From: an uncultured bacterium
Lineage (GTDB): Bacteria > Patescibacteriota > Minisyncoccia > Phycocordibacterales > GWA1-40-21
Length of the DNA: 64,000 nt
Reading direction: 5' to 3'
NCBI GenBank assembly: GCA_963840885.1
Contig: CAWJAN010000001.1
Span: forward strand, 181,356 to 245,355
The number at the start of each line of letters is the position of its first letter. The stretch's first letter is position 1. The notes under the pieces are model-generated. The model had not been told where the DNA came from. It saw only the letters and a list, made by a program, of their open reading frames with translations, and searched no databases. This document shows, piece after piece, positions 2,691-64,000 of the stretch. The position numbers were made by a program, and so were the translations under genes.

Positions 2691-2776
2691 CAGTTCGAAT
2701 AGTAGCAAAAAACTGGTAAAAATAAAGCTTATTTTTCATTGAAAAAAAATCTTAAAATGATATTATGCTTTGTGTT

Positions 2777-2860
2777 GCGCAGGTGGCGGAGTGGTCAATC
2801 GCAATTGACTGTAAATCAATCGCCCATTGGGCTACGTAGGTTCAAATCCTACCCTGCGCA
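2777..2860 (+). tRNA. tRNA-Tyr(GTA)
   Basis: Acceptor GCGCAGG/CCTGCGC with discriminator A. Anticodon arm ATTGA-CTGTAAA-TCAAT gives anticodon GTA. The long variable arm is typical of bacterial tRNA-Tyr. T-loop TTCAAAT. Confidence 0.85.
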
Positions 2861-2865
2861 CAAAA

Positions 2866-2896
2866 AATAAAAACCCGAAAGGGTTTTTATTTTTTG
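2866..2896. terminator. Rho-independent terminator hairpin (bidirectional)
   Basis: aaaaacccg-aaa-cgggttttt followed by a T-run. A-run/T-run on both sides. It lies between convergent tRNA-Tyr (+) and clpB (-). Confidence 0.6.
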
Positions 2897-2921
2897 TGCG
2901 CATAAGTCTTGTCTTTTGCTC

Positions 2922-5630
2922 TTAATTTTTAGATTCGAAAACGTCTTCGGAAATAAGATTCATGTTTTCTATTTCCCTTTCTATTATCGAGCCTCTTCTG
3001 CCTTTTTTTACTTCGAATGTAAGCTCATACCCCTTGGTTCCTATGGCAACAGATCCTCCTTTCACAATTCCTCCGGAAATTATCAGGGAAGAGATCGGAT
3101 TCAAAATCCTGTCCTGTATGAGCCTTTTCAGCGGCCTTGCTCCGTATTGCGGATTATAGCCTTCCTTGGCCAGATAATCGGATGCTTTGTCTGAAATATC
3201 CAAAGTTATTTCTTTAATGGAAAGCCTTTCTCTAACCTGTGCGATTTGTATGTCTACAATTTTTCTCACGGCTTCATGGCTGAGTATGTCGAATACTATG
3301 ATTTCATCGAGTCGATTCAGGAATTCCGGCCTGAAATGATCTTTCAGCGATGCCATGACTTTTTCCTTGATTGTATTGTATTCTGAAACTTTTTCCTTCG
3401 ATGTCGTGAATCCTATCTGCTCCATCTTGTCTATGAATTGAGCGCCTATATTGGATGTCATTATAATAACTGTATTTTTGAAATTCACTACCCTGCCTTT
3501 AGAATCCGTAAGCCTTCCGTTGTCGAGCACCTGCAGAAGAAGATTGAATACTTCCGGATGCGCCTTTTCGATTTCATCGAACAGGACAACGGAGTATGGC
3601 CTGTGCCTGACGGTTTCGGTCAGAGTTCCACCTTCTTCGTATCCCACGTATCCTGGCGGAGATCCTATGAGCTTCGATGTCGAATGCTTTTCCATAAACT
3701 CTGACATATCTACTCTTACCAATGCTTTGTCGTCATCAAAAAGGAATTCGGTAAGAGCTTTTGTGAGTTCTGTTTTTCCTACGCCGGTCGGTCCAAGAAA
3801 TATGAACGAGCCTATAGGCCTGTTGGGATCGCTGATTCCAGCCCTCGATCTTTTTATCGTATCGGAAATTTTCCTAACGGCTTCATCCTGTCCTATGATT
3901 CTTTTCCTGATCTCCTCTTCCATCCTGACAAGCTTATTTGCTTCAGATTCAAGCATTCTCGACACAGGAATACCTGTCCACTTTGAAACTACGGTGGCTA
4001 TGTCTTCTTCGTTTATTTCTTCTTTAAGGATTCTTCTTGATATCTGAAGTTTTTTTAATTTTTTAAGTTTCAAATCAAGATCTTTTTCCGCCTGAGGAAT
4101 CTTTCCGTATCTTATCTCGGCTGCCTTTGACAAATCTGCCCGTATTTCGGCATTATCTGCATCGATTCTAAATATTTCAAGCTGTTTTTTAAGATCCTTT
4201 ATTCCTGAAAGTATCTCTTTTTCAGTTGTCCAGCGCAGCTCCACATCTTTTGTCTTTTCTTTAAGGTCAGCGATTTCTTTTTCTATCACGTCCACTCTTT
4301 TCTTCGTCTCTTTCTTTTTTTCTCCGTCCATTTCCTTTTTAAGCGCTTCTTTTTCTATTTCCAGGCGCATAACCCTTCTTCTGGCTTCTTCAAGCACCGG
4401 CGGCATATTTTCAAGAGAAATTTTAAGCATCGATGACGCTTCGTCTATGAGGTCTACGGCTTTGTCGGGCAAAAACCTGTCCGTTATATATCTCGAGCTC
4501 AGATTAACCGCGGCCAAAATGGCGTCATCAGTAATCCTGACCCCGTGATACAGTTCGTATTTTTCCTTGAGTCCGCGCAAAATCGCTATAGCATCATCTA
4601 TGGACGGCTCACTGACGAGAACTGGCTGGAATCTCCTGGTAAGCGCTGAGTCCTTCTCTATCTTCTGGTATTCCTTTAGCGTAGTTGAACCTATAGTCCT
4701 GAGCTCGCCTCTTGCAAGGGCTGGCTTCAGCATATTCGACGCATCCATGGAACCCTCAGCGCTTCCGGCTCCAACTATGGTATGTATTTCATCTATGAAA
4801 AGTATCAGCTTGCCGTCAGATTTTTCTATTTCCTTAACTATTGCTTTCAGCCTTTCCTCAAACTCCCCCCGGTATTTTGTGCCTGCAATCAAGAGGCCAA
4901 GATCCAAAGAAACCAATTCTTTGTCTTTCAGTGATTCCGGAACATCTCCGGAAGCTATCCGTGCGGCAAGACCTTCCACTATTGCTGTTTTTCCCACGCC
5001 TGCTTCTCCTATGAGTATAGGATTATTTTTCGTCCTTCTAGAAAGTATTTGTATTATTCTTGAAATCTCTACGTCCCTTCCTATTACGGGATCCAGCTTG
5101 TTGTCGCGGGCCAGCTTGGTCATGTTTCTGGTATATTTCAAAATCGCTCGGTATTTTTTCGGCTGGCTTGTTTCATCTCCTTTCAAAGTTTTCAATTCCG
5201 ACAGGATTTTCAATATAGTTGCCTTGTCTATCTTGAATTTTACGAGCATATCCCGTGCCGAAGACGGCGCATCCGTTATGGCAAGAAAAAGATGTTCGGT
5301 TGAAATAAATTCGTCTTTCAAATCACTTGCTTCCCTGCCGGAAAGGTCTAGAATCTGCGCAAGCTCGGGAGTCAGGTAAATCTGATGCGGGCTCGAAAGC
5401 GTCGTGCCAGAACTTGATGATTCGATCATTTCTATAATGGTATCGGTAAACAATACTATGTCGATATCAAGCCTATCCAATATCGAGGAGACTACCGATT
5501 CTTCCTGAAGGATAAGTGCGGCAAGCAAATGCAAAGGATTGACGTGGTTTTGTCCGCGCTCTATTGCAAGCTCATGAGCTCTCCTTATGGCTTCTTTTGC
5601 TTTTGTGGTGAAATTATTGAATGGGGGCAT
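2922..5630 (-). CDS. clpB: ATP-dependent chaperone ClpB
   Basis: 902 aa. Clp N domain ([12 protein letters not shown]), two AAA+ modules with Walker [16 protein letters not shown] and [14 protein letters not shown], and a long coiled-coil middle domain. Confidence 0.93.
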
Positions 5631-50982: not shown

Positions 50983-51972
50983 ATGAAAAAAGCTTTGCTT
51001 TGTTTTGCCGTATTCGTTGCCGTCTTTTCGGCAGCGATTGTCATGACCTCGTGCGGAGGAGGTAATCCTGCCGGACCGGGAGGCGGAGGAAGCAGCCAGA
51101 CGCCGGGAATAACCTGCATCAATAATCAGGGAACGGTGGTGCCATGCGCTCCATCTTTCACGGCAACGCCGACGCCTACCGGAACATGGTATACGCCGAC
51201 GCCGACGGACACGATGACTCCCTGCTTTATTTCAACGGGGACTCCTTGCGGACCGGGTATACCGACTATACCGCCGACTGGTACCTTTACGATGACACCT
51301 ACTATCACGTCTACGGTTACTAAAACGCCGACGGCAACTCCGACTTCGACTCCCTCGAGCCACAATGTATATTTTGTGATTTCGGGAACTTTTGTCGGAG
51401 GAGGAACGATCAATACGTCGAATTCCACAGCAGGTTCATCTGAAGAAGTGGATGAGACGGTGTCGCCGATTTCACGAACATCATCGACGTATGCGTTTAA
51501 TTCCGGAGATTTGATTTTTGCGTCAATCGGAAACATACCGCCTGGACCATATTACAATATGTCTAATTCGACTGTTGAAATATGGGTTGACGGATCGCTT
51601 TGGCGCTCTGCTTCATTGCCTTCAGGTGTGGCTACAGGAAATAATGTATTATTAAATGAGACTGTTCCTGTGGATACATCGAGTACGCCTGCCGGAACTC
51701 CGGTAAACGTATCATATACGGTTACATCGAATAATCCTGGGGATTTTTCCGTAACATATAATCTGCCGGACGGAGGACAAGTATCGGTTTCTCAAAATGA
51801 ATCCTTTACTTCGGGAACTCTTCAGTTTTATCCGGGAGAAGTGGCGAAAATCGAAGGGACGAGCTTGAGCGGAAGGACGGATAATTTTACGTCTACGATT
51901 CTGGTGAGTAGTTCATCTGTTGCTCAGATAACCGCTGCAAGCGATGCGGTTACAGAGTACACGATGCCTTGA
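50983..51972 (+). CDS. Predicted lipoprotein, Thr/Pro-rich (paralogue of 55009-55764)
   Basis: Lipobox VMTSCGG (signal peptidase II-type), then NPAGPGGGG and a T/P-rich linker and a beta-rich C-terminal domain. It shares the ...C..(x)NPAGPG... N-terminal architecture with the 55009 product. Confidence 0.55.
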   Translation: MKKALLCFAVFVAVFSAAIVMTSCGGGNPAGPGGGGSSQTPGITCINNQGTVVPCAPSFTATPTPTGTWYTPTPTDTMTPCFISTGTPCGPGIPTIPPTGTFTMTPTITSTVTKTPTATPTSTPSSHNVYFVISGTFVGGGTINTSNSTAGSSEEVDETVSPISRTSSTYAFNSGDLIFASIGNIPPGPYYNMSNSTVEIWVDGSLWRSASLPSGVATGNNVLLNETVPVDTSSTPAGTPVNVSYTVTSNNPGDFSVTYNLPDGGQVSVSQNESFTSGTLQFYPGEVAKIEGTSLSGRTDNFTSTILVSSSSVAQITAASDAVTEYTMP

Positions 51973-51984
51973 TCCAAAGTCATG

Positions 51985-52020
51985 CGGGCCCGGTTCATAT
52001 TATGAACCGGGCTTTTTTAT
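51985..52020. terminator. Bidirectional rho-independent terminator
   Basis: gcgggcccggttcata-tta-tgaaccgggcttttttatt. Confidence 0.65.
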
Positions 52021-52027
52021 TAAATAA

Positions 52028-52573
52028 TTATTTCAAATAAAGAAGAGCGAAAATATGCCAAGTTTTTATATCACCTTTCATAGTCAAACCTTTTCCAAAA
52101 TCTTCAGAAGTAAAATATGGTTTTTTATCCAAAATGCCAAGCGCTTCTGTTTTTGAATAGAAACTCATCGTATTGGCATGAATATCAACCCATTCATCTT
52201 CAACGCCAAAAAGAGTGAAATAAATAAAGCCTCCGGTTTTAAGATTATCAAAGGCTGTTTTTACTATCCTTTTTACTTCTGATTTATCGTGAATAAACGG
52301 CAAGATATTTGACATGATGATGCCATCGAAACTCTTATCAAAATCAAATTTTTCTACGGGTTCGTTTATAAGTTCATAATCGTTATCTTTAACCTTATGA
52401 AATCTACCATCCGCAAGAGAAAGTTTTTCTTTATCTTTATCTACAAGCAAAACATGGTATCCTGATTCAAAAAAAGGTTCTGAAACCGAACCATCGCCGC
52501 AGCCCAAATCCGCTAAAAACCCGTGTTTCTTGAGCATATGTTCTTTTTGAAGTTTTTTGAATAAAGCTATCAC
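52028..52573 (-). CDS. Class I SAM-dependent methyltransferase
   Basis: SAM-binding motif I LADLGCGDGSVS and a post-I acidic residue (LLVDKD). 181 aa, a small Rossmann-fold methyltransferase. Confidence 0.72.
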   Translation of the reverse strand: MIALFKKLQKEHMLKKHGFLADLGCGDGSVSEPFFESGYHVLLVDKDKEKLSLADGRFHKVKDNDYELINEPVEKFDFDKSFDGIIMSNILPFIHDKSEVKRIVKTAFDNLKTGGFIYFTLFGVEDEWVDIHANTMSFYSKTEALGILDKKPYFTSEDFGKGLTMKGDIKTWHIFALLYLK

Positions 52574-52591
52574 TAAAATATACTCGATTAT

Positions 52592-53347
52592 CTACAATTT
52601 TATTAGCGAATCTTTTAGCACATCGAGATGTCCCCTCCCATATACCACGAAAACATCCTTATCAGATTTTAAATTTTCCTCAATGGCTTTTAGTAAATAC
52701 TCATTTCTTAATTCTGTTCTTTTTGAAACAATCTCATTGATAATCGTATCTTTTTTTCTTGGATCAGATATTGAAGAAATAAATTTTTTATCTTCCAATT
52801 TTTGTTCGCCAAACAGTTTTTTATGCCTGCCATAAAACCAATCAGTTGTAGGGGTAAATTTATAAATATCAGAAAATTTCGTCTCTTTTTCTATGGAATT
52901 TTTTTCCAATGATTGCTCAAGAGTAAGTTTTCGTTCTGTGCGGAACCATATTAATAAGCTTTGAATTATAAATGCATAAGCTACATCTTGCGGATCAAAT
53001 AATTCACATAATTTTCTGCGCTGTTCTTCACCATTTGGTTCAGGATATATAACTTTGGCATTACCTTCATGGGCAAGACAATACGCCGCTCCGATTTCTC
53101 CGTATAAATTTATCGCCTCTTGAAAATTATTTATGCTTTTAAGATTTTGTTCGCTCTTTTTATTGCTTTCTACAATGACAACTTTGTTTTTTGAACTGTT
53201 ATTTATAAAAAATTTCCATGTATTCGATAGAAGATCAAATTGGGGATGCTTGGTATCATTAGAATGAAGAGCACCAAAAAAACATAGTGTGCTTCCATTT
53301 TCGGCATATTTAACTAATATAGAATTGAAATTATCGTTATAGGCCAT
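52592..53347 (-). CDS. TraB/GumN/Tiki-family protein (putative peptidase/peptide-signal processing)
   Basis: Two family-type motifs: TLCFFGALHSND (G-x-x-H) near the N-terminus and VFVVYGRGHLDVL (G-x-G-H-L) near the C-terminus, as in TraB/PrgY/GumN/Tiki. Tentative. Confidence 0.45.
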   Translation of the reverse strand: MAYNDNFNSILVKYAENGSTLCFFGALHSNDTKHPQFDLLSNTWKFFINNSSKNKVVIVESNKKSEQNLKSINNFQEAINLYGEIGAAYCLAHEGNAKVIYPEPNGEEQRRKLCELFDPQDVAYAFIIQSLLIWFRTERKLTLEQSLEKNSIEKETKFSDIYKFTPTTDWFYGRHKKLFGEQKLEDKKFISSISDPRKKDTIINEIVSKRTELRNEYLLKAIEENLKSDKDVFVVYGRGHLDVLKDSLIKL

Positions 53348-53383
53348 AAAAAATCGGATAGTATATAGAATATACTATCCGAT
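53348..53383 (-). terminator. Intrinsic terminator/attenuator directly after the precursor-peptide gene
   Basis: Perfect 14-bp inverted repeat atcggatagtatat-aga-atatactatccgat. On the minus strand it is followed by TTTTT, which runs into the ATG of the downstream TraB-like gene. Confidence 0.55.
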
Positions 53384-53403
53384 TTGGCAAGAATTCTCAA
53401 ACC

Positions 53404-53577
53404 TCACTGATCAGTGTTGTCGAGATATTCATCACCATACTGGATATCCGGATAAGTATAATCATCATACTCATCCGAACTCATCCGAGTACTTGCCGTT
53501 GGTAATGGCAACCGGTCAACACGCGAAAAAGCTCCGCGTAATGCCTTAATGCCTTTTTCTTCTGCAAGAACTGACAT
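53404..53577 (-). CDS. Candidate RiPP precursor peptide (57 aa) with Tyr-x-Asp-rich C-terminus
   Basis: Own translation: MSVLAEEKGIKALRGAFSRVDRLPLPTASTRMSSDEYDDYTYPDIQYGDEYLDNTDQ. It is preceded by an AAGGAGG RBS 7 nt upstream of the ATG and sits 44 nt downstream of the rSAM/SPASM gene on the same strand. It is not in the supplied ORF track. Confidence 0.55.
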   Translation of the reverse strand: MSVLAEEKGIKALRGAFSRVDRLPLPTASTRMSSDEYDDYTYPDIQYGDEYLDNTDQ

Positions 53578-53621
53578 GCTTTCCTCCTTAATGAAATCAA
53601 AGCAAGTTTGTTGCTATATAT

Positions 53622-54707
53622 TTACACGATAGCATTCGTAACTGCCGGATGCGCTTTCAGATACTTGCTTATATGCTCATAAAATGCCAAACGGCTGCCG
53701 CAATATGCATAATGCGGAGAAATGTCGCCATCGTCGATACGGTGAGCAACGCAACCGTTATGGCAAAATGTCTGCATGGGACATAACTTGCACTTATCAG
53801 GCATTCTAAACGTTTGCTCTGAGAATACCCTGTGTTCTTGTGATTCAAGAACTTCAGCAAAAGATTTTGCCTCAGTTATTTGTCCAAAACACACAGATCT
53901 TCCTAAGCGTTCGCATGGATAAACTTTGCCATCATAATCTACGAGCATCCAACTGGAACAAGTCCCGCGAAAGGTACACAACTGAGCAGCACGGTTCCTG
54001 GTCCAAGCTAGAATTCCATCTATTTCACGCACCCGTATATCCGGACGATCAAGTGAGATCCATTCTTCAAAGATATTCTTTAAAAAATTAGTCCACGCAT
54101 CGTCACTTATAGCAAACTTATCGCGTTCAAAATCTGTAGCTGTATTGTAAAAGGCATTGAACGCAATGCTTGTAAAACCAGATTCGACTAGTCCGCGAAG
54201 CATTTCTGCTCCGCGTTCCGAATTGCGTTTTGTTACAACACAGATAACTGATGGTTTTATTCCTGACTCACGAAGAATTCTTACGCCGTTCATTACTCTT
54301 GAATATGAACCGTGACCATAAAAACTTACCCTGTCAGCATCGTGCGTTTGGGAAATTCCATCAACACTAACACCAACCTTGAAATCATTGGAAAGTAAGA
54401 AATCAGCCCATTCGCGATTTATAAGTGTCGCATTAGTCTGAATCGTATTTTTCCACTGCTTATCTGGATGTTTTCTTTGAAGCTGAATCACTTCTTTGAA
54501 AAAATCTAGGCCGGCTAACGTTGGTTCTCCGCCAAGCCAATGCATTCGTTGGATTTTCTGTGGCAACTGTGCCAAAGAATTTATGAGTGCTTTAAGAATT
54601 TCATAAGGCATAATGCGTTTACTGCCCTGATCAAAATCACGATCACGGCAATATGTACATCGAAGATTACAAAAATCTCCAACTATTTTAGCTTGAATTG
54701 CTGGCAT
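53622..54707 (-). CDS. Radical SAM / SPASM-domain peptide-modifying enzyme (anSME-family maturase)
   Basis: CNLRCTYC (CxxxCxxC radical-SAM cluster) at residues 13-20. The C-terminal Cys cluster CERLGRSVCFG...CKLCPMQTFCHNGCVAHR is typical of SPASM/twitch auxiliary [4Fe-4S] domains. Confidence 0.85.
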   Translation of the reverse strand: MPAIQAKIVGDFCNLRCTYCRDRDFDQGSKRIMPYEILKALINSLAQLPQKIQRMHWLGGEPTLAGLDFFKEVIQLQRKHPDKQWKNTIQTNATLINREWADFLLSNDFKVGVSVDGISQTHDADRVSFYGHGSYSRVMNGVRILRESGIKPSVICVVTKRNSERGAEMLRGLVESGFTSIAFNAFYNTATDFERDKFAISDDAWTNFLKNIFEEWISLDRPDIRVREIDGILAWTRNRAAQLCTFRGTCSSWMLVDYDGKVYPCERLGRSVCFGQITEAKSFAEVLESQEHRVFSEQTFRMPDKCKLCPMQTFCHNGCVAHRIDDGDISPHYAYCGSRLAFYEHISKYLKAHPAVTNAIV

Positions 54708-55008
54708 TTTAGTTCACCACCTTTCATTATTTAAAAGAACTTAGGAAAAAACTCTTTGGATGTGCCTAAATATTCAAGCTTACCGAAAGAGTTATTTTCT
54801 GATTCAATTTTAACAATCAATTTAATCTTGTCAAACCGTGGTTCAAAAACCCTTTATTTATGGCCCTAAAATTGGCTTATCCACAGGGATTTGACTTTTT
54901 ATTATTTAATAGTATAATATTGACAAGGCTAAAGAGTTGTTCTTTAGTTAAGTTGTACCTTCAAAACTTAATACTACGACTACAAATAAATTTCCGAGGA
55001 GGAAAATT

Positions 55009-55764
55009 ATGAAGAGAATTATGCTTTTGCTGCTTCTGATTCTCCCGGTTGTCTTTCTTTCCGCCTCGTGCGCTCAGAAAGATAATCCGGCTGGACCAGG
55101 TCCGAGTAATACGCCGACGGCAACGCCGGTGGTAAGTGCAACGCCAAGCGTTTCAGCCACTGCTACGCCCACCACTACGGTGACGTACAGTGTCCGAGTT
55201 CAGATGAGCGGTGATTTCACCGCTGCTGGTGGAATTGATGTGAATTCCTTAGATGGGATACATCATTTTTCCACTTCGCCGTTTTCCTACGATGCGACCT
55301 TTACAAGGGTCTATTCAGCGGCAACGACGCTCCATCTGTCTTGTGATACCACTGATGGGACATATACCATGAACAATGCCGTGATAACGGTATCGTTCAA
55401 TGGAGTAGAGTGGGCACCCACTTTACCCTACGTCCTGACAAATGGTAATTACCTCGGTTTAGAAGGTCCTATCCCAGCAAGCTTGACGGTAGTCAATACC
55501 GGCTCGCCTGTCGATGTCTATTACACGGATACTGGGTCTTCAGGAACTTCTTGGTGGTTAGCAAACGGCTGGACCATGGGTGTCGTTACCGCTGGTCCTG
55601 TTACGTCTCCGACGTATCAGTTCTATAGCGGAGATATGGCACGTCTGGTGACGTGCACCGGCGGTGGCGGATGCAATGATACCGCAACCATTTATGCCGG
55701 AGGCTCCCCAGTAACAACCAACACCTACCTTTACGGAAATGATATCAGTTATACCATTCCGTAA
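55009..55764 (+). CDS. Predicted lipoprotein, Thr/Pro-rich (paralogue of 50983-51972)
   Basis: Lipobox LSASCAQ, then NPAGPGPS and a T/P/A-rich linker and a beta-rich C-terminal domain. Confidence 0.55.
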   Translation: MKRIMLLLLLILPVVFLSASCAQKDNPAGPGPSNTPTATPVVSATPSVSATATPTTTVTYSVRVQMSGDFTAAGGIDVNSLDGIHHFSTSPFSYDATFTRVYSAATTLHLSCDTTDGTYTMNNAVITVSFNGVEWAPTLPYVLTNGNYLGLEGPIPASLTVVNTGSPVDVYYTDTGSSGTSWWLANGWTMGVVTAGPVTSPTYQFYSGDMARLVTCTGGGGCNDTATIYAGGSPVTTNTYLYGNDISYTIP

Positions 55765-55834: not shown

Positions 55835-56467
55835 TTAATTCACAATGTAAGGATTGTTCGAGTAGTTGTATATATAATCCTCGAGGTTTATGTAGTTTTG
55901 TGATGGATTGATTCCCCATTCTACTCTTATACGCACCAGGGCTTCCCCTGGAGTTGTGGTAGTAGAAATATTCAGATATCGGTTAAAACCTGATGGTATT
56001 CCTTGTGATAAATTATAATTTACAAAATTTCCTTGCGGATCATTTGTTATTCTTAATGTATGGGCAATCTGAGTTTTATTGATGGCATTAGAAAGATTTA
56101 ACTGAGTTGTATCTATATTGCAAGATTTTTTTCTTGTCTGAATATTTACCGTATCTAAACTACATGCACTCTCGTTTCCAACACAAAAACAAGAATAGCC
56201 GTCACCGCTATCAGCAAACGGCCAGAGCCAAAACGTATTAGTCGTAGCATTCGAAAGCGCCACTTCATCGCGGATATTTTTTACCGCTTCCATGGCATCC
56301 TGCGCCATGTATGCGGCAATCATCTGGTCTGTGGACTGCGTGGCCGACTGAGTTCCCCTCTGCGCCAAGCTCATAGGCCCGGCGATGGCGACCATAAGAA
56401 TGGAAATCGCCACAAGCGCTTCTACAAGCGTGAATCCTTTTATTTTTTTGCTGAATGTTTTTTTCAT
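55835..56467 (-). CDS. Type IV pilin-like protein (minor pilin/pseudopilin)
   Basis: Prepilin leader and N-methylation site MKKTFSKKIKG|FTLVEALVAISIL (G/FTLxE with Glu+5). I chose the internal start. The ORF-track extension to 56539 overlaps the upstream pilin gene. Confidence 0.75.
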   Translation of the reverse strand: MKKTFSKKIKGFTLVEALVAISILMVAIAGPMSLAQRGTQSATQSTDQMIAAYMAQDAMEAVKNIRDEVALSNATTNTFWLWPFADSGDGYSCFCVGNESACSLDTVNIQTRKKSCNIDTTQLNLSNAINKTQIAHTLRITNDPQGNFVNYNLSQGIPSGFNRYLNISTTTTPGEALVRIRVEWGINPSQNYINLEDYIYNYSNNPYIVN

Positions 56468-56492
56468 AATAAAATTTATTAAATGCTGGGGT

Positions 56493-57131
56493 TTATCTCG
56501 ATCTCTGAGAAATCGTCGTCTGAAGGGCAAAGGTGACATTTCCGATTTTGGACTCGACGGAACCCTGAAGCGTTATCAAGACTCTCGGCTGTGTGCCGGC
56601 ATCAATGGAAGGATCAGAATTATAAACATAAAACTTCATGCTGGTTATGTTCACCGTCGATGTCGGAGCGGTCAGGCTCTGCCATGCTCCTGTCTGAGCG
56701 CAATTGAAATTGCTTTTCGTGGCATCGCACATCTGTATATTGCCGTCGCCCGCTGAAAGCATCGAGGATGGAACGAATTTGTAATATATAACATCTCCGG
56801 GAACCAGATTGCCGAGCGCATCCAAAGACGGAGTCGCCGTGTATACGATGCCTGTTCCGCCACTTGTGCAATCGGTATTTTGAGTGAAAGAATTGCTGTC
56901 CGCGGAACATCCATAATGCGTGCCTGTCCTCATATCCCTTGAAATGCTGTCTAATGCGAAGGAAACATTGTCCACGACAGTCTTTATAGCTTCATTTTTT
57001 TTATTGGTATTTATAACCGTAAACAAAGCACCTACGGAAATGACCATGACAGACATGAAAACAGCGATGGCGACAAGCATCTCTACAAGAGTAAAACCTT
57101 TATTCTTTTTTATGAAACTATCTTTGAACAT
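56493..57131 (-). CDS. Type IV pilin-like protein (minor pilin/pseudopilin)
   Basis: MFKDSFIKKNKG|FTLVEMLVAIAVF is a class III signal peptide with Glu+5. Confidence 0.75.
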   Translation of the reverse strand: MFKDSFIKKNKGFTLVEMLVAIAVFMSVMVISVGALFTVINTNKKNEAIKTVVDNVSFALDSISRDMRTGTHYGCSADSNSFTQNTDCTSGGTGIVYTATPSLDALGNLVPGDVIYYKFVPSSMLSAGDGNIQMCDATKSNFNCAQTGAWQSLTAPTSTVNITSMKFYVYNSDPSIDAGTQPRVLITLQGSVESKIGNVTFALQTTISQRSR

Positions 57132-57774
57132 AAATTTGTCCGAGTCCCGTTACCACAATGCTTGATGTCGCACCATCAGCGGAAGAAACAGTAATTTTTG
57201 CATAATTTTGGGCTTTTGTCGTGTTGCCGCCGGCATCCGTATATATAAGGGCGTTCGGAGAAGGCCTTTTGAAAATTATATATAAATCGTTTGCCGGCCC
57301 GAGAATATTGTTCTTGCAATCCGTTTCATTATCCCCTACGCATATCTGTGATATGAAAAAACCGTTTTTTACATTGTATTTTTGGATGCATTGCAAATCG
57401 TTTATCGTGCATTGGAACGAGGTGTTGTTATTTGAGATATCAAAATACGGCCAAGCGGTTATCGTATCGGGAACGGAAAAAACCATGAAGCTGTCATTGC
57501 CAAGATTGGACGGGCTGAAATATACTCCATACGAAGGGAAAGATGATGTGTGTATGGATTCCTGCACTCCAGATCCGTATACTTGTGTCTGCCTGATGGT
57601 CAAAGACATATCATATACGAGATTATTTAGAAGTATGGAATTATTGAATCCGCCTTGCGTAAAAAGCACAACCGTAGTGAGTAAAACGAAAATGACTATG
57701 GTTACCATGAGCTCTATGAGTGTAAATCCCTTTTTCAATCCGGCTCTTTTTTTATTTTTTAGAAAATGTTTCAT
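57118..57774 (-). CDS. Type IV pilin-like protein (minor pilin/pseudopilin)
   Basis: MKHFLKNKKRAGLKKG|FTLIELMVTIVIF is a class III signal peptide with Glu+5. Confidence 0.75.
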   Translation of the reverse strand: MKHFLKNKKRAGLKKGFTLIELMVTIVIFVLLTTVVLFTQGGFNNSILLNNLVYDMSLTIRQTQVYGSGVQESIHTSSFPSYGVYFSPSNLGNDSFMVFSVPDTITAWPYFDISNNNTSFQCTINDLQCIQKYNVKNGFFISQICVGDNETDCKNNILGPANDLYIIFKRPSPNALIYTDAGGNTTKAQNYAKITVSSADGATSSIVVTGLGQIYVQR

Positions 57775-57784
57775 ACAAAAATTT

Positions 57785-58573
57785 TTAAAAACCTATGAGG
57801 CTTCCGAGATTCCATCCTGTGATTATCTGGAGCAAGACCCCGAGAGCTATGAACGGAGCAAAAGGTATCTCGCTCTTAATCGTGATATGATGGCGCTTCA
57901 GAATTTTAAGCTTCTCAAACGCAATCAGGATAAGGCTCCATATGGCACCTATCCAGAAAGCGGAGATTATAGCAAAAATTCCGCCGGAAAATCCCAGCAT
58001 CCATCCGACTCCGAGAGCAAGCTTTGCGTCGCCGAAGCCCATCCATCTGCCTTCCGACACGAGCCATAATGCCCCGAAAAAAGCGAATAGGATTATTCCT
58101 CCAAGAAAATCCATGCCGGCCTGGCCGGAAAAAATATTCAGGAATCCGTAGCTGAAGAATATTATAAGGGCGGCAATGGCATTGAAAGGATAAACGAATC
58201 CGTCAGGAATTATCTTGTGTCCCAAATCGTATGCGGTTATGACTATGAGTAATGATGCTGCCAAAAGATAAAGTATGAGTATCCAAGAAAATCCTATCTG
58301 CCAGAAAAGCGCCGCGTATGAAAGGCCGGTAAAAAACTCAATCCAGAAATATTGGGCGGATATCTTGCTATTGCAGTTCAGGCATCTTCCTTTCAAAAAA
58401 ATAAAGCTCCACAGAGGCACAAGCTCATACCAAAAAAGGTGCTTGCCGCAGCTCAGGCATTTTGACCTGCCGCTCATGAAAGACATGTTCGTGTTGTAGC
58501 GGAAAACGACTACATTTAAGAAGCTTCCTATTATGGTGCCGAATATGAAAAAAATTATAATGTTGAACAGCAT
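57785..58573 (-). CDS. pilD: Prepilin peptidase (A24 family; leader peptidase/N-methyltransferase)
   Basis: N-terminal Zn-binding CxxC...CxxC (CLSCGKHL...CLNCNSKI). Eight TM helices. Conserved Asp-containing segments (AYDLGHKIIPD ... GFGDAKL). Confidence 0.88.
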   Translation of the reverse strand: MLFNIIIFFIFGTIIGSFLNVVVFRYNTNMSFMSGRSKCLSCGKHLFWYELVPLWSFIFLKGRCLNCNSKISAQYFWIEFFTGLSYAALFWQIGFSWILILYLLAASLLIVITAYDLGHKIIPDGFVYPFNAIAALIIFFSYGFLNIFSGQAGMDFLGGIILFAFFGALWLVSEGRWMGFGDAKLALGVGWMLGFSGGIFAIISAFWIGAIWSLILIAFEKLKILKRHHITIKSEIPFAPFIALGVLLQIITGWNLGSLIGF

Positions 58574-58580
58574 TTTTATT

Positions 58581-59102
58581 TTACAAAGGCATTACATCGT
58601 AAATCTTCGGATTGGAAGACGCGTCGACTCTCTGGCTTTCATCGGCTCCGGAGCACTCCAGAAAATTCGTTCCTCCGTCATCAGTTGAAGTTATGCCTGT
58701 GGAATCCAGGCCTTTTTTCTGCAAAAGAATCTGGTTGTTTGTTTCGAGCGTAGTCCAGAGCTGATAAAAAGTGCAATATGTGTTAAAAGACGATGAGCTG
58801 TCTTTTGCCACAAGCGGAAAATATCCGTACGGACTTTGGGTGGACGGATCGGCAGGAACGGACGGCAAAAATCCAGCGGTAACCAAATCTTGCAAAGCCG
58901 GAGGATACTGGTGATTCTTATTGTAATACTCTTCAAGGGAAAGCTTGATGAGGCTTATGTCGGATATTCTGGTGCTATCCCTTCCCTGCGCCTTCGAAGC
59001 GTCAAAAGCGGAATAGGTAATGGTAGTGAGTATGCCTATGATTGCAACTACGACCAGAATCTCTATCAAAGTGAAGCCTTTTTGTTTTTTAAAACGCAAC
59101 AT
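58581..59102 (-). CDS. Type IV pilin-like protein
   Basis: MLRFKKQKG|FTLIEILVVVAIIGIL is a class III signal peptide with Glu+5. Confidence 0.75.
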   Translation of the reverse strand: MLRFKKQKGFTLIEILVVVAIIGILTTITYSAFDASKAQGRDSTRISDISLIKLSLEEYYNKNHQYPPALQDLVTAGFLPSVPADPSTQSPYGYFPLVAKDSSSSFNTYCTFYQLWTTLETNNQILLQKKGLDSTGITSTDDGGTNFLECSGADESQRVDASSNPKIYDVMPL

Positions 59103-59137
59103 TATTCTTTGATTATACCAATCATTGCCATAAAAAA

Positions 59138-59162
59138 CAAAAACCCCTTGCGGGGCTTTTGT
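59138..59162 (-). terminator. Rho-independent terminator after the major-pilin gene
   Basis: ccccttgcgggg hairpin with a T-run on the minus strand (plus strand aaaaacaaaaaccccttgcggggctttt). Confidence 0.5.
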
Positions 59163-59184
59163 TAATAAAATCCGTTAAGAGATT

Positions 59185-59598
59185 CTATTGGCAATCAGTC
59201 GATGAGGCAACATTGGCTGTTGTGCCTTTTGAAGCACCTGAGCTTCCAGCACACCAGTATGTGTCGCTTCCTTCGGCAACCTTGAGAGGCGCTGAAGCTG
59301 ACCAATCATTTGCGGTAGCAATACACATGCCTGCACCACCTCCTGTTGAAGTGGCATTTGCAAACATATTTGCAAATGTCGTATCACCGCACAAGCCTGT
59401 ATAGCTGTTTGGTGTTTGGCTGCTGTAATACAATTCTCCTTGGGCTCTCATAGAGGCCAATTCTGATTTGACTGCAGCATTTGCACCCTTTGCTCTTGCG
59501 GAGTTAAGCGATGCCAAGACCACCGATGAAAGAATACCGATGATGGCGATAACCACCAAAAGTTCGATCAATGTAAAACCTTTTTGATATTTTCTCAT
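59185..59598 (-). CDS. pilA: Type IV major pilin candidate (PilA-like)
   Basis: MRKYQKG|FTLIELLVVIAIIGILSSVVLASL. 137 aa. A C-terminal Cys pair (CAGSSGASKGTTANVASSTDC) looks like a D-region disulfide. It has its own downstream terminator. Confidence 0.72.
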   Translation of the reverse strand: MRKYQKGFTLIELLVVIAIIGILSSVVLASLNSARAKGANAAVKSELASMRAQGELYYSSQTPNSYTGLCGDTTFANMFANATSTGGGAGMCIATANDWSASAPLKVAEGSDTYWCAGSSGASKGTTANVASSTDCQ

Positions 59599-59837
59599 AA
59601 AGTGTTTAATTCCTATCGATAAAAATTAACTTTGATAAACGCTTTTTCAAAACCAATCCGCTTGCTCAAGGCGGATAAAATTTGAAAAACTGATTTTTCG
59701 CGAAAAATCAGAAAGCTTGCCTGTAATTATAGCGTATATTTTTTCAAAAATGAAAAGCTGTCATGTGGATAAGAGAAAATGCGGCGCCGTAAGGCGCCGC
59801 ATTTTTACTTTCTACTCAGAACTTTATTAACTTAATC

Positions 59838-61046
59838 TTATGCTCCTGCCGATATGGAATAAATAGGAACGAGAACGGCAGCCATGAGGAAAGCCACACC
59901 AAGACCTAAGATCACTATCATTGAAGGTTCGATAAGGCCGACTATGGAATCTATGGAGTTGGTGACTTCCCTGTTATAAAAACTTGCGAGAGTCTTGAGG
60001 ATATTGCCGAGCTGTCCTGTTTCTTCGCCTATCTTCACCATCTGCACGAATATTCCCGGAATCTCTTTGTGCTTGCCGAGAGCTTCGGAAACGGAACTTC
60101 CGGATTTAACATCCTCTTCAGTTCTCTGCATGATTGATTTGAAAACGCTGTTTCCTACGATGCTTGAAGTTATGTCGAGAACTCTGACCATAGGTATTCC
60201 GGAGACGATCATAGTATTCATATTATCGGCTATTCTTGCCAGATACAATTTCAGATATAAATCTTTTACCAAAGGGACGCTGATTTTAGCTTCATCATAA
60301 GACATCTTTCCGGCATTGGTTTTCAGATATCTCCAAAGGAAAAAACCGGCGATTACGAGAGCTATCAGAAGTATGATTCCGTAATTGACAAAAAAACTTG
60401 AAATACCGAGAACCACCTGCGTATAAAACGGTATAGCCTGGCCGGATTGGGTAAGAATATCGCTTATCTTAGGTATTACGAAAGTAAGCATAAGAATCAT
60501 GACTACGATAAAAGTGCATACGACAAATGCGGGATAGATAAGTGCTGTTTCCACTTTTGATGTTACTTCGTAAGTCCTGTCGAGATAATCGGCCAGATAC
60601 ATGAATGTCTGGTCGAGCTTTCCCGATTCTTCTCCGGATTTGACCATGTTTATATAGAAATCAGAAAATGCTTCCGGATGCTTTGATAGCGCCGTGGAGA
60701 TGGGGGTTCCTCCTTGAAGATCGTCGGCTACTTCTTTGAGTATTCTTCGCAAAATCGGCTTTTCCGACTGCGCGGCAAGAAGCTGAAAAACTCTTAGAGC
60801 AGAAACCTGGGCTTCAAAAAGGGTGGAAATCTGTCTTGAAAGTATGACTACGTCCTTGTTTGAAACTCTGTCAAAAAAAGTTATGTTCTTTGACAAAAGC
60901 GATCCAGATTCTTCTTCCGGCTTTATAGTGACTATGGACAAGCCTCTTTTCTGCAAAGCGCTTATGGCCAAGTCAATATTCACTGCATCAACCGTCCCTT
61001 CTTTTGAAGCGCCTGTCTGATCCAATGCTTTGTATCTAAAAGTCAT
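59838..61046 (-). CDS. pilC: Type IV pilus assembly platform protein PilC (GspF family)
   Basis: 402 aa with two tandem T2SSF domains and three TM helices. Its position between pilT and the pilin genes supports the call. Confidence 0.88.
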   Translation of the reverse strand: MTFRYKALDQTGASKEGTVDAVNIDLAISALQKRGLSIVTIKPEEESGSLLSKNITFFDRVSNKDVVILSRQISTLFEAQVSALRVFQLLAAQSEKPILRRILKEVADDLQGGTPISTALSKHPEAFSDFYINMVKSGEESGKLDQTFMYLADYLDRTYEVTSKVETALIYPAFVVCTFIVVMILMLTFVIPKISDILTQSGQAIPFYTQVVLGISSFFVNYGIILLIALVIAGFFLWRYLKTNAGKMSYDEAKISVPLVKDLYLKLYLARIADNMNTMIVSGIPMVRVLDITSSIVGNSVFKSIMQRTEEDVKSGSSVSEALGKHKEIPGIFVQMVKIGEETGQLGNILKTLASFYNREVTNSIDSIVGLIEPSMIVILGLGVAFLMAAVLVPIYSISAGA

Positions 61047-61066
61047 ATTTTTATTTTAATCTTAAT

Positions 61067-62131
61067 TTATAGCATTCTCTGCAAAATCTTCGAATCCGTA
61101 GCATAAACATATGCATTCTCAACAGTTATTTCTCCCCTGGCAACAAGTTCCGCCAGGCTTCTGTTCATATCAACCATTCCTTCCTGCGAACTTGTTTCTA
61201 TGACTGAATTTATTTCATGAATCCTGTTTTCCCTGATGAGATTTGATACGGCATTATTATTCATCAAAAGTTCGTATGCAGGAATAAGGCCGCCGGAAAC
61301 TCTTGGAATAAGCCTTTGCGAAAGTATTCCCATCAAGCTTCCGGCCAGCTGGATTCTTATCTGTCCCTGCTGTTCGGCAGGAAAAGAATCTATGATTCTT
61401 GAAATTGTCTGCGCCGCGGAATTCGTATGAAGCGTGGAAAAAACCAAATGCCCGGTTTCCGCAGCGGTCACAGCTGTGCCTATGGTGTCTATCCCTCTCA
61501 TCTCTCCGATCATAGCCACATTTATGTCTTCCCTGAACATGCTCTGCAGGGCTGTAGGGAAATCTTTCGTATCAAGCCTTATTTCTCTCTGATCCACTAT
61601 GGATTTTTTCTGTTCGAAAACATACTCGATGGGATCTTCGATTGTTATTATATGTTCGGTTCTGGATTCATTTATCTCTTCTATCATTGCGGCGAGCGTA
61701 GTGGTTTTTCCATGGCCTATCGGTCCGACGACAAGGAAGAATCCCTGTGGCTTTTCAGTGAAAGATTTGAGTATGTCGGGAAGATTGAGCTCTTTGAAAT
61801 TCCTGATCTTTTTAGGAATGAGTCTCAGCGCTATGCCTATTTTCCCTTGCTGGAAGAAACAATTGCCCCTGAACCTGTTTCCGTTTTCTGCTCCGTAAGA
61901 AAAATCAAATTCTTTTTTATTCAGGAATTCATCAAAATTTTCCTTTCCTATGAGCTCGTTCAGAAGCCCTCTTACTTCATCTGAGCTGAATTCTTCTTTC
62001 TTTACAAGAGGAAGAAGAAGGCCTGTAACCCTTATTATGGGCTTTCTTCCTTCTCCTATGTGCAGGTCCGAAGCTCCTTCTTCTGAAACTATCTTGACCA
62101 GGTCATTTAATTCTTCTTTGTAATTCATCAA
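61067..62131 (-). CDS. pilT: Type IV pilus retraction ATPase PilT
   Basis: Walker A GPIGHGKTTT, Asp and His boxes. 354 aa is PilT-size, and it lacks the PilB N-terminal domains. Confidence 0.88.
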   Translation of the reverse strand: MMNYKEELNDLVKIVSEEGASDLHIGEGRKPIIRVTGLLLPLVKKEEFSSDEVRGLLNELIGKENFDEFLNKKEFDFSYGAENGNRFRGNCFFQQGKIGIALRLIPKKIRNFKELNLPDILKSFTEKPQGFFLVVGPIGHGKTTTLAAMIEEINESRTEHIITIEDPIEYVFEQKKSIVDQREIRLDTKDFPTALQSMFREDINVAMIGEMRGIDTIGTAVTAAETGHLVFSTLHTNSAAQTISRIIDSFPAEQQGQIRIQLAGSLMGILSQRLIPRVSGGLIPAYELLMNNNAVSNLIRENRIHEINSVIETSSQEGMVDMNRSLAELVARGEITVENAYVYATDSKILQRML

Positions 62132-62165
62132 TTTTTTGTTATTTTTTCGGTTAAAAATTTTCTGG

Positions 62166-62555
62166 CTACTCCATCGTCTTATCGTAAATCTTGAAAACTT
62201 CGTCTACGACTTCCGAAGGTATTGTGGTGGCCTTTATTATATAGCCGTTGAAGCCCATTTCTTTTGCCCTTTCTATGTCTGCCGATGTTCCTTGATTCGT
62301 CAAAATGACCGAGACCATGCTATTTACAAGATTTCCTTTCTTCATCTCGTCGTATATGGCGAAACCGTCCATATTCGGCATAACGAGATCAATTATCAGT
62401 ATATCGGGCTTGAAATCCCCTTTCAATATGGAAATTGCGTCCTGTCCGTTATCAGCCGTCTTGACGTCGCAATTATTTTTTTCAAACTTCATCGCATACA
62501 TGCCGAGAAGAAAGTTGTCGTCATCGACTATTAAAATCTTTTTCTTTTCTGCCAT
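62166..62555 (-). CDS. Single-domain response regulator (CheY-like receiver)
   Basis: KILIVDDDNFLLG, phospho-acceptor Asp in ILIIDLVMPNMDG, and conserved T/K later in the fold. It has no output domain and sits between pilT and pilB. Confidence 0.8.
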   Translation of the reverse strand: MAEKKKILIVDDDNFLLGMYAMKFEKNNCDVKTADNGQDAISILKGDFKPDILIIDLVMPNMDGFAIYDEMKKGNLVNSMVSVILTNQGTSADIERAKEMGFNGYIIKATTIPSEVVDEVFKIYDKTME

Positions 62556-62594
62556 AATTATACTCGGCTAATTATATCACTTATAAAGAACGAA

Positions 62595-64000
62595 TTACAA
62601 TTGATTCACTTCCTCGAATGGTATTTCTTTGTTTACTGACTTTATTATCGCGTCTTCTTTCATCGTAAGAAGGCCTTGTTTTCTTGCCACCTTGAATACT
62701 TCCGATTCTACCGGATTTTTCAGAATGACATCTTCTATTTCCGGGCTCATCTTGAACATTTCAAATACGCCTATCCTGCCTTTGACTCCAGTAGGGCATT
62801 GCGGAGTCGATTCGGCTTCATATATTTGTTTGCCTGTAGGAATTTCATCCCTGAAAGCCGATGGAACGTCTTGGAATTGCTTATCTATCATGGACTGAAT
62901 GCTTTCCGTAATAGGCGCCGGCTTCCCGGTATCCGGGCAAAGCTTCCTGACAAGCCTTTGGGCAACCGCCAATATAAGAGTGGGCGGAATAAGATATGGA
63001 TCAACGCCCATATCTATAAGTCTTGGAACAACTCCTGTTGCGCTGTTTGTGTGTATTGTTGAGAGAACCAAGTGTCCGGTAAGCGCCGCTTGCACAGCAA
63101 GCTGGGCAGTTTCTTTGTCTCTGATTTCTCCGACCATTATGATGTTGGGGTCTTGCCTTAATGTAGTACGCAGGCCGTTTGCGAAATCGTATCCGATTTC
63201 CGGAAAAACCTGCGACTGGCTTACGCCGTCTATATTGTATTCGATAGGATCTTCAAGAGAAAGTACGTTCTGGGTATTTTTGTCTATTTCTTCAAGAATC
63301 GCATAAAGCGTAGTCGTCTTACCGGAACCGGTCGGACCTGAAATCAAAATCATTCCATACGGCCTCTGCGTGGCATCTCGGAGCATCTTAAGATATCTTT
63401 TGGAAAATCCCATTTCTTCGAGCTTCCTTATTCCTCTTTCCTGATCAAGTATCCTCATAACGACTTTTTCGCCGTAATACGTGGGGAAAGTCGAAACACG
63501 GAAATCTATTTTCCTTCCTTCTATTTTTGCGGAAAATCTTCCGTCTTGCGGCTTTCTTTTTTCGTCGAGGCGCATATTGGAAAGTATTTTTATCCTGGCA
63601 ACCACAGCCTGGTGAACTTCAAGCGGCAATACGAGGCTGGTATTAAGGATTCCATCCACCCTGAATCTGACGCGGATTTTATCCGACATGGCTTCGATAT
63701 GAACGTCTGACGCATTGCCTTCTGTCGCATATCTGAGTATTGTGGCTACGATCTTCGTGACCGGAGCGTCTTCTATTATCTTTGTTTCTACTTTTTTATC
63801 TTTATCCTTGTCGGAAGTTATTTCTATATTTTCAAGATCAGTCGAAAGCTCAGATTCAAGCTCGGTAAGGGCCTTGGTGACTTCCCCGGAAAGGCCTTTG
63901 TAGCTGCTGATGACTTTCTTGTAATCCTTTTCTGAAATTATGAAAATCTTATACGGAATATTCAGCTTGCCGACGATAAAATTTATGGCGTCTCTGGCTT
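62595..64000 (-). CDS. pilB: Type IV pilus assembly ATPase PilB (GspE family), N-terminus beyond window end
   Basis: Walker A GPTGSGKTT and a tetracysteine-like region. The ORF-track start (MSDKIRVRF at 63689) is internal. My in-frame translation upstream continues without stops to the window edge and includes the GspE N2/N-terminal signature VTKIVATILRYATEGNASDVHIE. Confidence 0.88.
   Translation of the reverse strand, partial: ARDAINFIVGKLNIPYKIFIISEKDYKKVISSYKGLSGEVTKALTELESELSTDLENIEITSDKDKDKKVETKIIEDAPVTKIVATILRYATEGNASDVHIEAMSDKIRVRFRVDGILNTSLVLPLEVHQAVVARIKILSNMRLDEKRKPQDGRFSAKIEGRKIDFRVSTFPTYYGEKVVMRILDQERGIRKLEEMGFSKRYLKMLRDATQRPYGMILISGPTGSGKTTTLYAILEEIDKNTQNVLSLEDPIEYNIDGVSQSQVFPEIGYDFANGLRTTLRQDPNIIMVGEIRDKETAQLAVQAALTGHLVLSTIHTNSATGVVPRLIDMGVDPYLIPPTLILAVAQRLVRKLCPDTGKPAPITESIQSMIDKQFQDVPSAFRDEIPTGKQIYEAESTPQCPTGVKGRIGVFEMFKMSPEIEDVILKNPVESEVFKVARKQGLLTMKEDAIIKSVNKEIPFEEVNQL

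Follow-up and report, generated by a model that had tools for sequence, protein, structure and literature searches.

Triceptides belong to the RiPPs, peptides that are made on the ribosome and modified after translation, and have three-residue cyclophanes formed between residues i and i+2 (review PMC11002830). One radical S-adenosylmethionine (rSAM) enzyme of this type, YxdB (WP_226048651.1), links C3 of Tyr to Cβ of Asp (Sugiyama et al., 2022, J Am Chem Soc 144:11580, as that work is presented in PMC11002830). Here we describe a locus with the same substrate motif in an uncultured bacterium of the Candidate Phyla Radiation (CPR; Patescibacteria). The locus lies in a 64,000-nt stretch (positions 181,356–245,355, hereafter the window) of contig CAWJAN010000001.1 (assembly GCA_963840885.1), and comprises genes for an rSAM enzyme with a SPASM domain, a 57-aa peptide with Tyr-x-Asp (Y-x-D) motifs, a 251-aa protein of predicted TraB/Tiki fold (“Tiki-like”), and a 181-aa methyltransferase. 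We consider it probable (roughly 0.6) that this is a triceptide-type RiPP cassette, in which the rSAM enzyme would install YxdB-like cyclophanes and the Tiki-like protein would act as a processing hydrolase.

Other described systems resemble parts of this locus. Cyclophane-forming rSAM enzymes of the DarE type are nearest by sequence to anaerobic sulfatase-maturating enzymes (anSMEs) and perform a different chemistry (PMC10288494). ATP-grasp loci of CPR bacteria have as accessories a SPASM rSAM enzyme, a UbiE-like methyltransferase, and a Tiki/TraB peptidase, and precursors were not found for most of them (Makarova et al., 2022, PMC8939145). A protease is absent from most rSAM-cyclophane clusters (those characterized being one C39 and one S9 enzyme), and because no protease is known, the mature products of most clusters are unknown (PMC12957482). 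TraB and Tiki are not mentioned in a review of RiPP leader peptidases (PMC10885120), and our literature search found no paper joining triceptides and CPR bacteria. An earlier, sequence-only reading of this DNA had held that the architecture was not a described one among RiPPs; this was overstated, because the Y-x-D triceptide of YxdB (PMC11002830) and the CPR loci already noted by Makarova et al. (PMC8939145) precede it. The chemistry of the cassette is probably of a kind already known, and it is the constant TraB/Tiki-fold partner, a candidate for the protease missing from cyclophane RiPPs, that appears to be the main novelty.

By substrate motif, the cassette is closest to YxdA/YxdB: in both, an rSAM/SPASM enzyme is encoded next to a short precursor with aromatic-x-X triplets (Tyr-x-Asp), and both share with the enzymes that form three-residue cyclophanes (3-CyFEs) the lack of a recognition (RRE) domain and the repetition of the motif several times per peptide. 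The likeness to YxdB is one of motif, and the chemistry is assigned by analogy; the cassette further differs from YxdA/YxdB in that its clade belongs to CPR/Patescibacteria and has a constant TraB/Tiki-fold partner, whereas most rSAM-cyclophane clusters lack a protease (PMC12957482). Compared with the 3-CyFEs, the window enzyme falls below the cutoff of every curated model and is nearer to anSME and DynA. The anSMEs (TIGR03942; PDB 4K36–4K39) are closest by hidden Markov model (HMM) and among solved structures, equal the window enzyme in length, and share with it the missing N-terminal extension and the CX3CX2C motif plus eight-Cys SPASM; they differ from it in that the window enzyme has a sub-cutoff score, a separate clade, a YPCE motif, a conserved peptide gene next to it, and no sulfatase nearby. 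DynA is the second-best model (205 bits); DarE and DynA are anSME-like and link aromatic side chains to a Cβ two residues away, whereas the window enzyme scores far below their cutoffs (450 and 650 bits), its precursor has no W-x-W/K motif, an ABC-transporter operon is lacking, and the host is a CPR bacterium and not a Gammaproteobacterium. The “Branch 2” graspetide loci (PMC8939145) come from the same radiation and have the same accessory set, whereas the window and nearly all Y-x-D cassettes are without an ATP-grasp gene; because the rSAM enzyme has its own Y-x-D precursor, we regard the cassette as an independent module and not as a graspetide accessory.

The four genes are co-directional on the minus strand, in the order rSAM/SPASM enzyme, 57-aa peptide, Tiki-like protein, methyltransferase, with a strong hairpin and T-run after the peptide gene (Table 1); the gene set, spacing and hairpin described by the sequence-only reading were all recovered. 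The rSAM gene is preceded by a Shine-Dalgarno sequence (AAAGGTGGTGA), and the peptide ORF (open reading frame) begins 44 nt past the rSAM stop codon, with a perfect AAGGAGG ribosome-binding site. Exact-sequence lookup in a public collection recorded neither the window peptide nor the rSAM protein as a called gene, and homologs were therefore used for comparison; their loci are cited below by L numbers.

The window peptide has a leader motif (ALRGAFSRV, residues 12–20) followed by LPLP, and an acidic C-terminal part with four Y-x-D motifs (YDD-37, YPD-42, YGD-47 and YLD-51). We found 18 distinct homologous peptides, encoded by ORFs of 51–72 aa 3' of the rSAM gene. Common to all 18 are a leader motif, A-L-x-x-[AV]-x-x-R-[IVT], in most cases with LP.P after it, and a very acidic C-terminal part. 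Past the leader motif, Asp occupies position +2 for 72 of 80 Tyr, against an Asp background of 22%. Composition-matched shuffles gave 17.3 +/- 3.4 Y-x-D motifs, and none of 5000 reached the observed 72, a count that is not fully independent given that the 18 peptides are related to one another. The middle residue varies freely among D, S, V, Q, G and P, and the peptides differ in where their motifs lie and in how many they have (4 to 9 in the high-identity tier). Such a pattern is what one would expect if the substrate is modified at residues i and i+2. The small ORF, proposed by the sequence-only reading as the substrate, thus holds up as the conserved partner of the rSAM enzyme, with Y-x-D as the conserved unit, and both are retained in orthologous loci.

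The three-part core of rSAM gene, peptide gene and hairpin, followed by the TraB/Tiki-fold gene, recurs in more than 25 CPR (Patescibacteria) loci. The order of rSAM gene, 51–72-aa ORF and ~250-aa gene is constant in contigs with differing flanks, and because the same order recurs in many unrelated contigs, the arrangement is not due to chance. Among loci with downstream sequence in the tier of at least 44% rSAM identity, tblastn placed a Tiki-like gene after the rSAM gene in all but L012. Approached from the Tiki-like side, 11 of 14 metagenome loci (at least 40% identity and more than 1 kb of upstream sequence; scan alignment of 10 sequences) have an rSAM gene, 10 of these 11 with a Y-x-D ORF. 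The conserved rSAM–peptide cassette and the Y-x-D statistics bear out the earlier proposal of a peptide-modification (RiPP-type) system. As for the four-gene cassette expected in CPR relatives, its rSAM, peptide and Tiki-like core is conserved, and the methyltransferase is mostly missing. No ATP-grasp gene was found in the 64-kb window by tblastn with the MvdD-like ligase of L102 as query (only L009 and L102 have one); because of this, we rejected an ATP-grasp hybrid for the window.

The rSAM enzyme has CNLRCTYC at residues 13–20 and the full set of SPASM cysteines, and scores above cutoff with both Radical_SAM (PF04055, 69.6 bits) and SPASM (PF13186, 36.3 bits), in agreement with the initial rSAM/SPASM call. 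The cysteines of the CX3CX2C motif (C13, C17 and C20) and eight auxiliary-cluster cysteines (C244, C250, C265, C306, C309, C315, C319 and C336) are invariant or nearly so in an alignment of 29 homologs; anSMEs likewise have eight auxiliary cysteines. An N-terminal RRE domain is absent, and by matched model coordinates the N-terminal extension is missing from the window enzyme as from the anSME, XyeB, YhhB, FxsB and GrrM models. In a neighbour-joining (NJ) tree that combines 90 collected enzymes with anSMEcpe, CteB and ChlB (100 bootstraps), the Y-x-D clade that holds the window enzyme is monophyletic in 98 of 100 replicates, and the window subclade in 100 of 100. Nearly all members of the clade have a Tiki-like neighbour and most have a Y-x-D peptide, and the clade does not fall within the branch of anSMEcpe, to which all five loci with a sulfatase signature belong. 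The rSAM homologs comprise ~40 clusters at 56–74% identity and ~55 at 44–50%. Among the 120 best homologs, most of which are nameless, every organism-named one is from CPR/Patescibacteria or an unclassified metagenome-assembled genome (MAG); no cultured organism is among the names listed, all named entries being MAG or JGI “uncharacterized protein” sequences. Two family members that were looked up are annotated as “hypothetical” or “Radical SAM core domain-containing protein.” The enzyme clade appears to be CPR-specific and new.

The nearest neighbouring rSAM clades both lie beside short peptides, of a ...W[RK]G...NW.KC type and a W-x-D/N type. Peptides of the latter type accompany a CPR rSAM clade (L031–L054, 33–36% identity); they have a similar leader (A..GA..R) and cores of W-x-D/N repeats such as GWDNWPDWDNGPDFPNWEDIGGPPPK (e.g., L032:6102-6293, L049:6112-6288, L037:6077-6271 and L051:6095-6289), and this clade probably represents a triceptide family of Trp type. 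Tiki-like genes are present at a few of its loci (L045/L115, L051 and L062). Peptides of 31–36 aa that end in NWRGTLSNWIKC or a close variant, a conserved C-terminal motif that has two Trp residues and finishes in Cys, follow rSAM homologs (34–37% identity) in L020 (6062-6169), L021, L026, L034, L036 and L038, from gut MAGs of Bacilli, Clostridia and Alphaproteobacteria. Outside CPR, an Anaerolineae MAG (L050:4950-7896) encodes an rSAM enzyme (32% identity), two Tyr-rich Y-x-D/N/S peptides (...HDYTYNDSPYADDPHAYSPSHSYTSN) and a 406-aa protein, a Tyr-type triceptide-like cluster without a Tiki-like gene.

The 251-aa protein matches TraB_PrgY_gumN (PF01963) weakly (20.1 bits, below the 26.8 cutoff). 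Its confidently predicted structure has a fold that matches TraB/ChaN/RRSP/EreC, and these fold matches bear out the TraB/Tiki assignment. Word-indexed protein searches returned few relatives of this protein or of the methyltransferase; exhaustive HMMER searches gave 413 representative clusters of the Tiki-like family at E <= 1e-3 and 154 at E <= 1e-10. The sole invariant columns in 40 diverse members are G25, H28, E60, R214, G237 and H240, such that the family has the pattern GxxH...E...R...GxxH, which we take to be the active-site signature of the Tiki/TraB/PrgY/GumN superfamily. Pfam matches among the 40 are all below cutoff (5 weakly to PF01963 and 4 to DUF5694). The fold is shared with a superfamily that includes ChaN, Ere esterases, and the RRSP and PMT-C1 toxin domains. 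Unlike PrgY/TraB, the Tiki-like protein is small (~250 aa) and has no membrane anchor; it appears soluble, inspection by eye having shown neither a signal peptide nor a transmembrane segment, and its gene is tied to RiPP genes and not to conjugation or pheromone genes. Tiki-like genes also occur with more distant rSAM genes and W-type peptides (L045, L051 and L062). We infer that the 251-aa protein may be a RiPP-processing hydrolase common to several pathway types. In L102, a Tiki-like gene (3810-4556, 42% identical) lies directly 3' of a gene with an MvdD pre-ATP-grasp domain (2714-3745; 28 bits against a 27-bit cutoff), in a locus with no rSAM gene; this suggests that the peptidase family may also serve graspetide-type pathways, and agrees with the prediction of Tiki/TraB peptidases for graspetide loci of CPR bacteria (PMC8939145).

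The hairpin between the peptide and Tiki-like genes is built of a perfect 15-bp stem (53384-53370 with 53366-53352) around a 3-nt loop, and its T-run reaches up to the next ATG. It folds at -23.1 kcal/mol, a value that none of 200 dinucleotide shuffles equalled (z = -5.07). A simple terminator scanner did not pick it up, yet it has the stable stem-loop and U-run at a gene end that characterize Rho-independent terminators. A hairpin and T-run occur at the equivalent position in all 11 related loci that we folded; because the stem sequences differ between loci, it is structure and position that are conserved. The junction was compared between the window (53348-53400) and L001, L004, L006, L007, L010, L011, L014, L016, L019 and L088. 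A -10-like box follows the T-run in most loci (TAATAT, TAGTAT or TATACT, often after TGn; in the window, TATACT lies inside the 3' arm of the hairpin), and the Tiki-like ATG stands 4–15 nt past this box without a Shine-Dalgarno sequence, in contrast to the rSAM and peptide genes with their strong ones. A canonical promoter (TTGACA-17-TATAGT) precedes the Tiki-like gene of L086. Given the succession of hairpin and T-run, -10 box, short leader and absent Shine-Dalgarno sequence, we prefer a reading of two transcription units: the element that the sequence-only reading had called an attenuator is more like a terminator directly before the next gene's own -10 box. It would close the rSAM–peptide transcript and be followed by a separate, short-leader Tiki-like transcript (with the methyltransferase where present). 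The recurring junction suggests leaderless or very short-leader Tiki-like mRNAs in CPR bacteria. Upstream of the rSAM gene, the promoter candidate matches 11 of 12 consensus positions, in a region that is not enriched for such sites (15 against 11.5 expected).

The 181-aa protein scores above cutoff with Methyltransf_25 (42.9 bits), and its gene is separated from the Tiki-like gene by 18 nt in the window. The complete four-gene cassette also occurs in L119 and one JGI contig. The Tiki-like relative closest to the window's is that of L086 (53% identity); an ortholog of the methyltransferase (55% identity) comes after it, and no rSAM gene or peptide lies within 12.8 kb. In L086, L119 and the JGI contig, the methyltransferase gene lies directly 3' of the Tiki-like gene and overlaps it. 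The locus with the closest rSAM enzyme (L088, 74% identity) has, 3' of the Tiki-like gene, an internally deleted methyltransferase relic (4701-4830) in which codons 1–31 (61% identity) are fused to the C-terminal KTWHIFHSLYFE; here, the loss of an accessory gene is caught in progress. Surveys of rSAM- and Tiki-based loci found no methyltransferase in more than 20 other cassettes, and lone orthologs (59% identity) occur in unrelated contexts (L120–L123). The sequence-only reading had counted the methyltransferase as part of the system; the only cassettes that include it are those of the window, L119 and the JGI contig, with L088 keeping a relic. It is a facultative add-on, co-oriented with the Tiki-like gene in one subclade only. 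The L003 cassette and the lone methyltransferase of L123 both lie between DnaJ and a block of histidine kinase and tRNA-synthetase genes, and comparison of L003/L004 with L123 suggests a single chromosomal site at which parts of the cassette have been variously kept or lost. On the JGI contig (sample 3300056388, 9135 bp), an M16 peptidase gene, a 50-aa ORF and two more radical-SAM genes on the opposite strand (products of 468 and 479 aa, SPASM in one of them) lie downstream of the cassette, and may be a second RiPP cluster beside the first.

Table 1. Features of the cassette and its borders (window coordinates).
Feature	Coordinates	Strand	Evidence
Sigma-70-like promoter candidate 5' of the rSAM gene	54807..54834	(-)	TTGACA, 16 nt spacer, TAAAAT, TG extension
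Radical-SAM/SPASM peptide maturase, 361 aa	53622..54707	(-)	Pfam and NCBIfam scans, 29-homolog conservation, clade
Precursor peptide, 57 aa	53404..53577	(-)	Homologous peptides 3' of the rSAM gene, 18 distinct versions
Intrinsic-terminator-like hairpin and T-run abutting the next ATG	53348..53384	(-)	Folding; equivalent in 11/11 related loci
TraB/Tiki-fold protein, 251 aa, putative metal-dependent peptidase	52592..53347	(-)	
Class I SAM-dependent methyltransferase, 181 aa, GTG start, facultative accessory	52028..52573	(-)	Pfam scan
GC-rich 13-bp hairpin between the methyltransferase gene and a convergent lipoprotein gene	51986..52014	(.)	T-run on the + strand

Profile matches of the rSAM enzyme could be taken to mean that it is an anSME or other protein maturase, for which the small ORF would not be the substrate. 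The top HMM is TIGR03942 (267.5 bits, 1.7e-79), followed by DynA, PapB, DarW/DarE and then the cyclophane synthases AmcB, GrrM/OscB, YhhB, FxsB and XyeB, with the same best profile and ranking across the 29 family members; the nearest solved structure is anSMEcpe (C. perfringens anSME, 167 bits; CteB, 57 bits), and the cysteine layout of the three clusters is identical. However, the score does not reach the TIGR03942 cutoff (349.45), nor those of NF010321 and NF010308; the Y-x-D clade is separate (98% bootstrap); a conserved peptide gene adjoins the rSAM gene; and the residue aligned after the third auxiliary Cys is Glu (YPCE), whereas anSMEs have Asp (YPCD), their proposed base. The six frames of the window are free of a sulfatase signature (C/S-x-P-x-R), and a scan of ten long window ORFs (housekeeping or transport genes) gave no sulfatase domain. 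The window therefore offers no sulfatase substrate, which the sequence-only reading had named, together with firm grouping among anSMEs, as evidence that would speak against a RiPP system. Among the loci of the Y-x-D clade, none has a sulfatase signature, compared with five in the anSMEcpe branch. On the sub-cutoff score, separate clade and sulfatase-free window, we dropped the sulfatase-maturase reading as very improbable; the enzyme does not group firmly with anSMEs, lying below cutoff and outside the anSMEcpe branch, with soft support at depth. Several observations weigh against the triceptide reading itself. Two of its hallmarks are present (a radical-SAM motif with SPASM, and an adjoining precursor with aromatic-X-X motifs), but no curated cyclophane-synthase cutoff is reached (bits/cutoff: XyeB 65/450, GrrM/OscB 119/310, FxsB 94/370, YhhB 109/445, AmcB 131/425), and anSME (267 bits) and DynA (205 bits) are nearer than any of these models. 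The solved triceptide synthase ChlB matches at 50 bits only; deep NJ nodes are weak (53–69%; anSME grouping 63%); the proposed chemistry stands on motif analogy; Tiki-like genes occur without an rSAM gene in L086, L093 and L103; and the window cassette has no exporter (a dedicated one was rejected, the nearest ABC ATPase being unrelated and ~10 kb away). The enzyme might instead modify the Y-x-D peptide otherwise, by a C-O or C-N link, Asp oxidation (e.g., toward aminomalonate), decarboxylation or epimerisation, and so define a different RiPP type. A 3-CyFE is said to have yielded formylglycine or aminomalonate in vitro in work by Ma et al. in 2021. The low cyclophane-synthase and ChlB scores fit such an outcome, as does the unrelated chemistry within the anSME-like subfamily, where TvgB makes cyclopropylglycine (PMC9062424; PMC11002830). 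We nonetheless consider it unlikely: the i/i+2 spacing is strict (72 of 80 Tyr, with a variable middle residue), the pattern by which triceptide substrates are defined; for the same motif, the outcome with YxdB has been published, as presented in PMC11002830; and the neighbouring clades carry W-x-D/N repeats, as in known Trp triceptides.

For the Tiki-like protein, the separate transcription unit and the rSAM-free occurrences mean that its role might differ from leader removal. It might be a factor for self-protection or turnover that degrades or sequesters the peptide, or merely a syntenic enzyme, with the leader cut by a general protease. PrgY/TraB control enterococcal pheromones, and the superfamily holds non-proteases (the haem binder ChaN and the Ere esterases). 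The gene appears to be under its own promoter past the terminator, and close relatives (40–53% identity) lack an rSAM gene or peptide in L086, L093 (with an S9 peptidase and ABC exporter near the Tiki-like gene) and L103 (no obvious RiPP gene by it). We regard such an alternative role as doubtful in view of the tight positional tie to the rSAM gene and peptide across ~44–74% rSAM identity, the presence of Tiki-like genes beside peptides of a different type (L045, L051 and L062), the invariance of the putative catalytic residues, the solubility of the protein without the PrgY/TraB membrane anchor, and the relative that adjoins another type of RiPP ligase in L102. Processing by the Tiki-like protein thus stays our preferred reading; that it represents a new class of RiPP peptidase, interchangeable between rSAM and ATP-grasp pathways and releasing acidic Tyr-Asp cyclophanes in a CPR-confined triceptide family, is a tentative proposal to which we give less than even odds. 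The methyltransferase could tailor the products, by O-methylating Asp carboxylates or Tyr hydroxyls or by N-methylating a new N-terminus, and so mark a methylated subfamily. Its place directly 3' of the Tiki-like gene (overlapping in L119, the JGI contig and L086) would fit this, as would the L088 relic, which makes the linkage ancestral to the subclade, a weak likeness to the daptide methyltransferase model (E 7e-5) and cypemycin CypM (28 bits), and the UbiE-like methyltransferases noted in CPR RiPP loci (PMC8939145). The many cassettes that lack it, its deletion in L088 with the remaining cassette intact, the orthologs of equal identity (59%) in unrelated contexts, and its retention in L086 with the Tiki-like gene alone make tailoring rather improbable.

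Under the triceptide reading, the rSAM and precursor genes, in the order and spacing observed, would be co-transcribed from the promoter near 54834 up to the hairpin. The rSAM enzyme would recognize the precursor, probably by the leader motif AL..A..R[IV]..LP.P, and by analogy with YxdB, the 5'-deoxyadenosyl radical would take hydrogen from the residue two past each Tyr, such that a three-residue cyclophane (Tyr-C3 to Asp-Cβ) would form at each of the four Y-x-D motifs with a loss of 2 Da per ring. The Tiki-like gene, expressed from its own -10 box with little or no leader, would provide a soluble and probably metal-dependent hydrolase, which most likely removes the leader and/or cuts between repeats to give small, very acidic cyclophane peptides. 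The methyltransferase, in the one subclade that has it, would be an optional tailoring enzyme or merely co-located.

Paralogous lipoprotein-like genes flank the cassette (50983-51972 and 55009-55764, both on the plus strand); the GC-rich hairpin before the first of them is likely the end of the transcription unit. In both proteins, a signal peptide with Cys is combined with a linker rich in Thr and Pro. Identity between the two C-terminal domains is 30% over 139 aa (E 2e-9), and neither protein matches a Pfam family above threshold. They were tried as a conserved part of the system and excluded, because the window pair is not detectably homologous to the lipoproteins in L086 or L088. A type IV pilus/type II secretion-like block (55835-63689, minus strand) adjoins the cassette; motifs mark three of its genes as pseudopilin-like (55835-57774; KGFTL[VI]E at the N-termini) and another as coding for a membrane protein that resembles prepilin peptidases (57785-58573), and a T2SSF protein (59838-61046) was confirmed by Pfam.

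Triceptides and other rSAM cyclophanes are studied for their strained macrocycles and as antibiotics (darobactin, dynobactin). With a constant partner of protease fold, the mature product could be approached by direct test, and RiPP engineering may gain a new type of peptidase. The cassette would give CPR/Patescibacteria, whose biosynthetic repertoire is very small, a second RiPP type besides graspetides, and its retention in such reduced genomes suggests a role in host interaction or competition. If the Tiki-like proteins are indeed a peptidase class of this kind, the acidic cyclophanes might help an episymbiont to deal with its host or to bind metal ions.

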